A stretch of 6,803 bases of DNA from a virus. Taxonomy: Duplodnaviria; Heunggongvirae; Uroviricota; Caudoviricetes. How positions within the stretch are numbered: the first letter of the stretch is position 1; every line of letters begins with the position of its first letter. The translations under genes and the position numbers were made by a program. Shown here one piece after another: positions 5,242 through 6,803 of the stretch. Below the pieces are notes generated by a model. The model had not been told where the DNA came from. It searched no databases and was given only the letters and a program-made list of their open reading frames with translations. The DNA lies in the IMG/VR virus record IMGVR_UViG_2778261347_000004; one strand, 5' to 3'.

Positions 5242-5282
5242 GGCTCTTTAACATTGATGGGATTGTCCCGCCGAAATGCGGG
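5242..5282 (+). promoter_or_regulatory. nutL: boxA GGCTCTTTAACA (5242-5253) and boxB hairpin CCCGCCGAAATGCGGG (5267-5282)
   Basis: About 40 nt downstream of the predicted pL start; boxB is identical to the nutR copy. Confidence 0.65.
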
Positions 5283-5294
5283 AACCAAAGAGTA

Positions 5295-5376
5295 GTTGGC
5301 TTTGGGGTGACGTGAAGTGCAGCTGCAAGACGGCAACCGGAAGATAAGCACGCGGCGCGTCACCGCCAAAGTCAAT
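5295..5376 (+). other. Long imperfect RNA hairpin in the N leader, candidate RNase III / translational control element
   Basis: 5' arm 5300-5312 (CTTTGGGGTGACG) pairs with 3' arm 5358-5371 (CGTCACC-G-CCAAAG) as 13 bp with a one-nucleotide bulge, extendable with G-U pairs to 5295/5376; the 3' arm ends 5 nt before the N Shine-Dalgarno GGAGG (5381-5385). Confidence 0.45.
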
Positions 5377-5390
5377 CATCGGAGGTCAAC

Positions 5391-5663
5391 ATGACAGTAG
5401 TCATTACATATCTGGCTGACGATAACGCCAGAAATCGCCGCAGAGCACGCAGACAGGCTCAACGTGAACAGGCAATGCAAGAACAGCGATTGGCACGAAA
5501 AATTGCGCTAAAGCTCTCTGGTTGCGTCAGAGCAGATAAAGCAGCATCACTCGGAAGCCTTCGCTGCAAGAAGGCAGATGAATGCAGTGGAAGTATTTGC
5601 CTGCCAAACGTAGCCATTTACGCGGCAGGCTACCGGAAATCAAAACAACTGACGGCGAGGTAA
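5391..5663 (+). CDS. N: N-like transcription antitermination protein with N-terminal arginine-rich motif, 90 aa
   Basis: First gene after pL/nutL; GGAGG Shine-Dalgarno; arginine-rich motif NARNRRRARRQAQREQ resembles lambda N (QTRRRERRAEKQAQWK); C-terminal tail ...YAAGYRKSKQLTAR resembles P22 gene 24 product as recalled. Confidence 0.85.
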   Translation: MTVVITYLADDNARNRRRARRQAQREQAMQEQRLARKIALKLSGCVRADKAASLGSLRCKKADECSGSICLPNVAIYAAGYRKSKQLTAR

Positions 5664-5665
5664 TT

Positions 5666-6028
5666 ATGGGTCAGGAAGAAAAATATGAGCTTAAAAAGCT
5701 CATTGGAGAAGACGCCATAGAAGAAATTGCAGCATTAACAACAGCTATAAAGAATATTAGGTATGCGCTAAATACGCTTATCTCCTCATGCGACAAAAAT
5801 AGCAGGGAATTTTTGATACTTGGCGCAGCTCTAGGAATAGTTGATGCGGCAACGCTTCACCTAATTACTCATGACGATATTCTTATTGAGCCGTATGAAA
5901 CATTACTGCTTGTCAGGCAAAAAATGGCTGATGCCGCAGCAAATGGAGACCTTCAACTTTACATCGACTTAAGGAAAGTATTAAGGCGAATGGTCAAAAC
6001 TGAAGGAGATATCCCCCTGACAAAGTAA
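5666..6028 (+). CDS. Hypothetical protein, 120 aa from ATG 5666, second gene of the pL operon
   Basis: ORF-track ORF 5582..6028 overlaps N by 82 nt; the internal ATG 5666 has GAGG 5 nt upstream and starts 2 nt after the N stop codon; predicted soluble, mostly helical; no recognisable motif. Confidence 0.55.
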   Translation: MGQEEKYELKKLIGEDAIEEIAALTTAIKNIRYALNTLISSCDKNSREFLILGAALGIVDAATLHLITHDDILIEPYETLLLVRQKMADAAANGDLQLYIDLRKVLRRMVKTEGDIPLTK

Positions 6029-6058
6029 GGGGGTGAAGAGGCCATTTCAGGAATAAAA

Positions 6059-6553
6059 TTAATAATTTGTCAGCGGCGGTACATATACAGGCTTAGGGTC
6101 TGGCGCTCTATACATCCGGTATTCATTCTTACAGCGAGGACATGAATGCACAAAGAACCCATTAGATTTTATAGTAACCGTGCTTGGTTGAAGTATCGAT
6201 ATTTTATGTTCGCCGAAGCAATGTGCACAAAGGTTATGCTGCTGAATAGAAGGATCGGAATGACTCTTAGGTCGATACACGACAGAACCACCTTCAGTTG
6301 TATGAAGTTCATAATTCTCAGCTTGCACAACAAACATCTTGATTTTTCTATTTTCATCTCGAAGCTTCATTGCGATCTCCTTCTCGGCCTGATAAAGGCC
6401 AGAGAGCTCCGCATTAAGCATCTGTAAGTCAGTTATTCTTTGGTGTAGATCACCAATAGCTTTAGCGATAACAGCATCGTCTCTGGTTTCTTTTATTGTC
6501 TTCAGCAGATCATAAGCCTGTTTCGCGGCAGTTATACCAGATAACACATCCAT
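6059..6553 (-). CDS. Hypothetical protein, 164 aa, N-terminal coiled-coil-like region plus C-terminal CxxC-X25-CxxC zinc ribbon; oriented against the pL operon
   Basis: ORF track; ATG 6553 with AAGAGAG upstream (minus); C-terminal CAHC...CPRC pair; convergent with the gene at 5666..6028 with only 30 nt between stops. Confidence 0.65.
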   Translation of the reverse strand: MDVLSGITAAKQAYDLLKTIKETRDDAVIAKAIGDLHQRITDLQMLNAELSGLYQAEKEIAMKLRDENRKIKMFVVQAENYELHTTEGGSVVYRPKSHSDPSIQQHNLCAHCFGEHKISILQPSTVTIKSNGFFVHSCPRCKNEYRMYRAPDPKPVYVPPLTNY

Positions 6554-6569
6554 ATAAATTACTCTCTTA

Positions 6570-6614
6570 CTGTAGGGGTAAGAGGATTTTACTATTTTTC
6601 TCGCTGTAGGGGTA
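6570..6614. repeat. Two exact copies of 11-bp direct repeat CTGTAGGGGTA (6570-6580 and 6604-6614) upstream of the zinc-ribbon gene
   Basis: Exact 11-mer twice, 34 bp apart, between the minus-strand ATG 6553 and the divergent plus-strand gene at 6754; they flank a candidate minus-strand -10 (TAAAAT, plus 6585-6590). Confidence 0.6.
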
Positions 6615-6753
6615 CACGAGAACCACCGAGCCTGATGTGGTTAAAAGACAGGCACAATCTTTACTACCGCAAGCCACGCAGTGAAATGGGTGTGACTTGT
6701 GTTGGTCGCCAGAAAATGAAATTAGACAGCAAACCACTTATTTGAGGTGAGAT

Positions 6754-6803
6754 ATGACAAAATCATGGAGCGTACCTTTTCCTGAATCAGAAACTGAACA
6801 TGA
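6754..6803 (+). CDS. Hypothetical protein, 5' end only (continues beyond window end); N-terminus MTKSWSVPFPESETEH
   Basis: ATG 6754 preceded by GAGGTGA Shine-Dalgarno; frame open to window edge. Confidence 0.4.
   Translation, partial: MTKSWSVPFPESETEH

Follow-up and report, generated by a model that had tools for sequence, protein, structure and literature searches.

Many small inhibitors of host machinery, among them Ral, Gam, Abc2, Kil, and cIII, are classically known from the left operons (pL) of lambdoid phages, and in lambda and P22 the small products of these operons that lie outside recombination are mostly protein inhibitors. Several described systems of this type provide points of comparison for the gene considered here. 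Ral, known from lambda and P22, is a small (66 aa), Cys-rich, non-essential early product encoded in the variable region between N and cIII/kil, and gp17 of P22 (PF17420, "superinfection exclusion gene product 17") is an accessory protein of the early left operon. A different arrangement is found in the Esc/SieB pair of P22 and lambda and in the Ati/Tai pair of phi80, in which an inverted, presumably prophage-expressed gene lies inside a lytic operon and is adjoined by a small lytic-operon gene; Esc is an in-frame fragment of SieB, while Ati accompanies Tai in the late operon. The phi80 pair has been described as a "non-contiguous operon", with an inverted defence gene placed within the lytic operon and its antidote adjoining (PMC11364771).

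Here we analysed a stretch of 6,803 nucleotides (the window), which represents the immunity/early region of a lambdoid prophage in the orientation opposite to the usual lambda map, with a focus on hkaQ, a gene directly downstream of the antiterminator gene N (Table 1). Its product resembles Ral in being a small and non-essential product of the pL operon, apparently made early, from the same variable region, in which Ral itself occurs in relatives carrying the same N as the window; it differs in being a 120-aa protein of predicted helical structure. The resemblance to gp17 is likewise one of operon and position: gp17 is encoded a few genes 3′ of hkaQ in several relatives, the same phage can carry both, and the two proteins have no sequence similarity. 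With the Esc- and Ati-type systems the locus shares its layout, given that hkaQ and the inverted gene hkaP converge within the pL operon, but the two genes do not consistently occur together, and HkaQ, unlike Esc, has no sequence relationship to the genes beside it, from which it is also distributed independently.

The protein has been annotated as "unknown" ever since the record of phage HK620 was deposited (PHROG 7374). Searches of the literature on hkaQ, on its PGAP name, and on HK620, HK629, or HK630 in connection with defence yielded no functional study; the only paper found to mention the gene placed an insertion between hkaP and hkaQ of HK620, treating this intergenic region as neutral, and obtained viable phage (PMC4506075). 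HkaQ is also absent from the supplements of both accessory-gene screens of Silas et al. (about 200 genes). We therefore have an uncharacterised pL-operon gene with an unusually fixed and apparently very early expression context, present both in tractable model phages (HK620, HK630, and HK629) and in Stx1a-converting prophages of pathogenic E. coli. If HkaQ is truly a counter-defence or takeover factor, it would represent a new protein family with a new target; otherwise it is one of many phage ORFans.

The locus and its phage backbone

The window has a lambdoid immunity region resembling that of Stx1a phages: positions 775–6803 are 100% identical to the Stx1a-converting phage Stx1a_10051, and positions ~5199–6654 share 99.3% identity with coliphages HK620 and HK630. 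The window protein is identical over all its amino acids to HkaQ of HK620 (AAK28865.1) and HK630 and 99% identical to that of HK629, and in all three phages the gene is flanked as in the window by N upstream and convergent hkaP downstream. Thus the gene itself does not differ between HK620 and the window, whereas the phage backbone does, being that of an Stx1a-converting-type prophage here. The match to the phrog_7374 profile is full length (E 1.3e-79, residues 1–120 against profile positions 1–120 of 120), and the 90% identity cluster to which the protein belongs has 497 members. These comparisons indicate that hkaQ is a genuine phage gene rather than a chance ORF, already catalogued under that name in HK620. 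A scan of the window against Rfam returned no known RNA families.

Table 1 Features of the window (positions in nucleotides from the first letter of the 6,803-nt stretch).
Feature	Position	Strand	Basis and remarks
DnaB-type helicase gene	845-2221	-	
O-like initiator gene	2277-3005	-	
cII and cro		-	
cI	3883-4620	+	
Membrane ORF, 98 aa	4661-4957	+	
pL-like promoter, TTGACC-17-TATCTT	5168-5196	+	Promoter scan; matches the annotated pL position of HK620 at a 299-nt offset; would drive N and hkaQ
nutL	5243-5282	+	Read from sequence; coincides with the annotated nutL of HK620, identical in alignment
nutL boxA-like, GCTCTTTAACA	5243-5253	+	
nutL boxB hairpin, CCCGC-CGAAAT-GCGGG	5267-5282	+	
N, antiterminator, 90 aa	5391-5663	+	Pfam N_peptide, E 1.1e-15; phrog_271
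hkaQ Shine-Dalgarno, GAGG	5657-5660	+	Within the N coding sequence
hkaQ, 120 codons, 120 aa	5666-6028	+	ATG 5666-5668, TAA 6026-6028; ORF list, phrog_7374, identity to HK620 hkaQ
HkaQ conserved core, residues 18-80	5717-5905	+	Alignments; short forms match PHROG profile positions 19-80
Most conserved HkaQ motif, IVDAATLHLI-T-HDD-ILIEPY, residues 58-77	5837-5896	+	End of hydrophobic helix into low-confidence loop
hkaP, 164 aa, coiled-coil and zinc ribbon (CxxC...CxxC)	6059-6553	-	phrog_1244; convergent, in the lambda sieB slot
tL1-like hairpin and U-run	6563-6595	+	Terminator scan; first terminator-like site on the pL strand; fold z-score -3.0 for 6555-6625

Start codon and annotation of hkaQ

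The immediate surroundings of the gene are as an earlier note on this DNA had described them. The N stop codon (TAA, 5661–5663) is separated by 2 nt from the ATG of hkaQ, a Shine-Dalgarno sequence of its own lies 5 nt upstream of that ATG, and the 3′ end is 30 nt from the 3′ end of the convergent gene with the CxxC...CxxC zinc ribbon. The Shine-Dalgarno sequence is supplied by the final codons of N (ACG GCG AGG TAA), as seen in the sequence and in a comparison of junctions: diverged homologues in a metagenomic locus (L004) and in Yersinia (L011) keep GCGAGG followed by the stop codon, 2 nt, and ATG, and two further loci (L007 and L008) have GCGAGGTGAAATATG. The diverged homologues in L004 and L011 begin at the codon that corresponds to the ATG at 5666, again after GCGAGG, and this supports that ATG as the start of hkaQ. 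Longer database forms of 148 and 158 aa begin inside N in another frame, and the 148-aa form, which starts from an ATG at 5582, is an annotation variant.

In the RefSeq annotations of L009 and L010, HkaQ carries the NCBI PGAP name "antitermination N domain protein", and some records start it at the ATG at 5582. Pfam searches at E ≤ 10 with the 120-, 130-, 148-, and 158-aa forms found no N_peptide or N-like domain, and no arginine-rich motif is visible in the HkaQ sequence; the PGAP name appears to be an annotation artefact. This name and the frame that is open back to 5582 also raised the idea of an N-HkaQ frameshift fusion, which we rejected, as the last N codons have no X XXY YYZ slippery site and the long forms have no N-like domain.

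Transcription and translation signals

The pL-like promoter and nutL of the window are identical to those annotated in HK620. On the + strand, the terminator scan found no terminator-like site from pL up to position 6563. We therefore infer that hkaQ would lie on the first, antitermination-independent pL transcript together with N, which would make it an immediate-early gene and not, as the earlier note had it, the first delayed-early product after N. Since the ribosome-binding site of hkaQ is made of the last N codons, the two genes are probably translationally coupled. The intergenic region between hkaQ and hkaP has no significant RNA structure (z −0.4 and −0.1).

The order of N and hkaQ is conserved in distant relatives

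In every lineage recovered, down to homologues of 41–44% identity, hkaQ lies directly 3′ of an N-type gene (the window; L004, L005, and L006; L007 and L008; Yersinia L011; and IMG/VR L059), and at 42 of 43 IMG/VR viral loci it is directly behind N. The proposal that it is an early pL-operon gene adjoining N is thus borne out by a gene order kept in all four lineages. In phages carrying the homologue with 64% identity, similarity in N is confined to its last 28 residues (68%), the remainder being a different allele, and an E. coli prophage (L010) retains hkaQ behind a 69-nt remnant of N; hkaQ therefore travels with the 3′ end of N.

The reverse association is far looser. In phage phi367, the gene after the same N is not hkaQ but an unrelated one of 74 aa, accompanied by ral. 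The full-length N allele is present in 226 complete E. coli genomes as opposed to 96 of 5426 for hkaQ, which is chromosomal every time, and among 359 phage records that match this region only 7 carry hkaQ. GC content also differs, at 40% for hkaQ compared to 50% for N. Given the difference in GC content, the narrower distribution relative to N, and the alternative gene in phi367, genome comparison indicates that hkaQ is a dispensable accessory gene of lambdoid phages that is transcribed from pL with N.

The earlier note had placed the gene in the ral position and likened it to ral, and neither the position nor the equivalence survived comparison. In lambda, N adjoins the convergent sieB, and ral lies ~750 nt further on; the sieB slot is therefore filled by hkaP, and no lambda gene corresponds in position to hkaQ. 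BLASTP of four members of the HkaQ family against Ral gave 0 matches at E ≤ 10, and there were no Ral matches in Pfam or PHROG either. Moreover, ral is found downstream of hkaQ in three IMG/VR phages (L038, L039, and L041), and this coexistence argues that HkaQ is no substitute for Ral. By these comparisons HkaQ is neither a homologue nor a positional equivalent of Ral.

A small protein family under purifying selection

The HkaQ family is tiny, comprising four lineages that occur in E. coli/E. albertii, in Yersinia, in one other genome, and in metagenomes. When 1.84 billion representative proteins were searched exhaustively with an HMMER profile, 8 matched, of which only P0003 and P0008 are true additional lineages. 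P0003 (148 aa, 64% identity to HkaQ) comes from metagenomic assemblies, and P0008 is a protein of 93 aa with 41% identity. Three other matches are fragments of HkaQ-family proteins, and the last three are repeat proteins that proved spurious on inspection: one of eukaryotic origin, one with an armadillo-like repeat, and one with the Calx-beta-like repeat "IIPHDDHLVE". A 92-aa homologue in Yersinia pekkanenii and one viral contig with a protein of this short type came to light when reference genomes and IMG/VR were scanned. PHROG 7374 is the sole PHROG matched by P0003, P0008, and the Yersinia protein.

The short forms of 92–93 aa contain the conserved core alone. Within its most conserved motif the alignment has invariant columns at I58, V59, D60, A61, T63, L64, H65, L66, I67, H69, D70, D71, L73, E75, and P76, and the invariant positions of the core also include N30 and R32. 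Within E. coli the protein is near-invariant (≥ 95% identity). Relative to the homologues of 64% and 41–44% identity, dN/dS by the Nei-Gojobori method is 0.17–0.19, and hkaQ is thus under purifying selection (dN/dS ~0.18), which also speaks for a genuine gene.

Predicted properties of the protein

HkaQ has a mass of 13.4 kDa and a pI of 5.2. An AlphaFold2 model built from a four-sequence alignment (pLDDT 76, pTM 0.56) places helices at residues 3–40, 47–66, 78–92, and 96–111, so that the protein is predicted, from a model of moderate confidence, to be small, mildly acidic, and composed of four helices. The pLDDT falls below 50 at residues 68–75, and the invariant HDD-EP segment lies in this low-confidence loop; H65-x3-H69-D70-D71-x3-E75-P76 is predicted to form a surface-exposed loop that is invariant across the family.

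Residues 49–67 reach a Kyte-Doolittle value of 2.03 (19-residue window), where the usual threshold was taken as 1.6. This stretch includes the invariant D60 and H65, the corresponding segment of the short forms scores 1.5, and the AlphaFold model buries it as the core helix of the bundle. Of the earlier description as soluble, helical, and without a recognisable motif, the helical character and the lack of a recognisable motif hold up, while solubility is only probable in view of this hydrophobic helix, which could instead associate with a membrane; on the model, HkaQ is likely soluble.

Searches for remote relatives returned little. Pfam and NCBIfam scans of HkaQ and all family members at E ≤ 10 gave nothing, and hence no enzyme or DNA-binding family; a PADLOC-DB scan of HkaQ gave 0 families at E ≤ 1; a sequence profile search of the PDB gave no credible match and no solved relative; and fold searches gave nothing specific. 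The earlier note had named confident homology to a known replication or recombination accessory protein as one finding that would speak against an anti-defence role, and the remote homology searches detected none.

Gene content downstream of hkaQ

The gene lies at the edge of a hypervariable accessory region in which relatives carry ral, gp17, SieB, and other small genes, a point in favour of the earlier note's reading. The inverted hkaP gene, annotated in HK620 as "putative superinfection exclusion protein", adjoins hkaQ in 66 of 96 E. coli genomes and 15 of 43 viral loci, while the remaining 30 genomes and 28 viral contigs have hkaQ without hkaP. Other contents 3′ of hkaQ are a 149-aa membrane protein (phrog_3054), a 62-aa ORF with gp17, ral, or ORFs of 53, 122, 227, or 109 aa; in the P0003 lineage a convergent GhoS-like gene follows the hkaQ homologue, and in the short-form lineages a convergent SieB. 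In total, at least 10 different architectures occur downstream of hkaQ. The variable interval extends from hkaQ (or N) to a conserved 156-aa phrog_1636 gene that starts at 6755 in the window, which holds positions 6029–6754 of it; among loci L017–L059 it has at least 10 gene contents, including ral, gp17, an insertion of an IS-type ATPase, and several ORFans. The accessory region at this position is where lambdoid phages keep anti-restriction and exclusion-related genes, and the interval from N to phrog_1636 is worth mining as such.

Relatives of HkaP occur without hkaQ. They adjoin N directly in a Salmonella phage and in Yersinia nurmii, and relatives of 63–79% identity in Salmonella, Yersinia nurmii, and Serratia are next to N or to a different gene. 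A 96-aa Serratia gene between N and the HkaP homologue was considered as a divergent HkaQ and rejected, since it encodes an arginine-rich N-like protein. Given the independent distributions of the two genes, hkaP is a neighbour of hkaQ rather than an obligate or dedicated partner, and the antagonism between their products that the earlier note had proposed is weakened accordingly. BLASTP of the HkaQ family against HkaP, two SieB proteins, the GhoS-like protein, gp17, Ral, phrog_5305, phrog_3054, phrog_1636, and N detected no similarity.

The HkaP family is itself widespread in Enterobacterales prophages, far more so than the HkaQ family, and members with 27–30% identity are inverted genes in Mu-like Pseudomonas phages (D3112 orf25, DMS3, and JBD30). 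HkaP has no matches in Pfam or PADLOC. It is an uncharacterised candidate for a role in prophage defence or exclusion, and arguably of more interest than hkaQ.

Possible functions of HkaQ

By analogy with other small pL-operon products (Ral, Gam/Abc2, gp17, Esc, cIII, and Kil), we tentatively propose, with a confidence a little short of even, that HkaQ binds a protein of the host or of a resident prophage stoichiometrically, acting in counter-defence, anti-exclusion, or host takeover. Sequence and comparative anatomy place hkaQ on the same terminator-free pL segment as N, with its ribosome-binding site within the last N codons, so that the protein would be made at the same time as N, during the first minutes after infection or induction. 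Under the proposal, it would then bind its target and neutralise or redirect it, with a counter-defence, anti-exclusion, or host-takeover activity as the outcome. The genomic context makes an anti-defence role plausible. The near-invariance in E. coli and the dN/dS of 0.18 point the other way, as they reflect purifying and not diversifying selection, under which arms-race proteins often stand. A more specific version is unlikely as formulated: HkaQ would found a new immediate-early counter-defence family, made in fixed ratio with N from the first pL transcript, and would use its invariant HxxxHDD...EP loop to disable an abortive-infection or exclusion system, of the host or of a prophage, by which early lambdoid functions are sensed, or it would be a second component of the N antitermination module.

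The layout of the window is that of the Tai/Ati "non-contiguous operon" of phi80 (PMC11364771), which raises the possibility of an Esc/Ati-like self-immunity factor. The prophage-expressed inverted gene of the sieB slot (HkaP here, SieB in the Yersinia-type relatives) would abort superinfecting phages, and HkaQ made from pL in lytic growth would neutralise this exclusion protein. In complete E. coli genomes the same 96 match hkaP or hkaQ by megablast, with both adjacent in 66, and the short-form homologues lie directly before a convergent SieB, both of which would fit; yet the 30 genomes and 28 viral contigs with hkaQ but no hkaP, many of them lacking any convergent gene downstream, the HkaP relatives of 63–79% identity that have no hkaQ, and the far wider distribution of the HkaP family make this explanation quite improbable. 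The slot partners HkaP, SieB, and the GhoS-like protein are also mutually unrelated, and HkaQ is unlike all of them, whereas Esc is a fragment of SieB. The constant place directly after N in every lineage would be explained if HkaQ were an accessory of the N system that modulates antitermination, the stability of N (against Lon, for instance), or the transcription machinery of the host. Translational coupling would fix the N:HkaQ ratio, and the C-terminal 28 residues of N have diverged in parallel with HkaQ (68% and 64%) while the other part of N was replaced. Physical linkage accounts for this parallel divergence equally well, however, because there is no intergenic DNA in which recombination could occur. 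Moreover, an identical N works without HkaQ in many phages, as in phi367 and all but 7 of the 359 matching records, L010 keeps hkaQ with N cut to its 69-nt remnant, and HkaQ has no detectable N_peptide or other transcription-factor domain, so that an N accessory seems improbable to a similar degree.

The density of invariant polar residues (N30, R32, D60, H65, H69, D70, D71, and E75) would also be compatible with a small site for metal binding or catalysis. HkaQ could in that case be a small metal-dependent enzyme with an invariant H-x3-H-D-D...E site or, if helix 49–67 is inserted, a membrane-associated effector. Nine invariant polar residues cluster in 30–33 and 60–76, the conserved loop is of low confidence in the model, as ligand-dependent sites often are, and the hydrophobicity of 49–67 exceeds the usual threshold. 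We nevertheless give this pair of explanations very little credence: no enzyme family matched at E ≤ 10, HD domains included, neither profile nor fold searches placed the protein among metal-dependent hydrolases, and the H-x3-HD spacing is unlike the HD-domain pattern. As for the membrane, the hydrophobic segment contains an invariant Asp and His, falls below the threshold in the short forms, and is the core helix of the AlphaFold model. A stoichiometric binder made with N thus remains our preferred, if tentative, reading.

Other features of the window and related loci

Several further observations concern the surroundings of hkaQ. In the P0003 loci (L003–L006) the gene in the sieB slot encodes a GhoS-like protein of 94 aa (Pfam GhoS, E 8.6e-7; positions 1713–1997 on the − strand of L004), which appears to be an orphan endoribonuclease resembling a type V antitoxin, with no GhoT called nearby. 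In the window itself, a frameshift was suspected in the O gene and dropped when its length of 242 aa was found again in L003 and L005.

Directly after cI, in the position of rexAB, the window encodes a 98-aa single-pass membrane protein with a GC content of only 29% (PHROG 18389, no known function). A bidirectional hairpin terminator follows its 3′ end at 4962–4981. This ORF resembles a prophage-expressed moron and looks like a candidate exclusion or defence gene.

Beyond hkaP, the direct repeat TCTnnCTGTAGGGGTA is present at 6565–6580 and 6599–6614, 34 nt apart, with each copy in a hairpin (fold z −3.0 and −3.9). This motif also lies upstream of sieB in an unrelated prophage (L008, 1030–1090), and the repeat may represent a conserved element, be it a boundary, a terminator, or a regulatory site, where the sieB slot meets the remainder of the pL operon.
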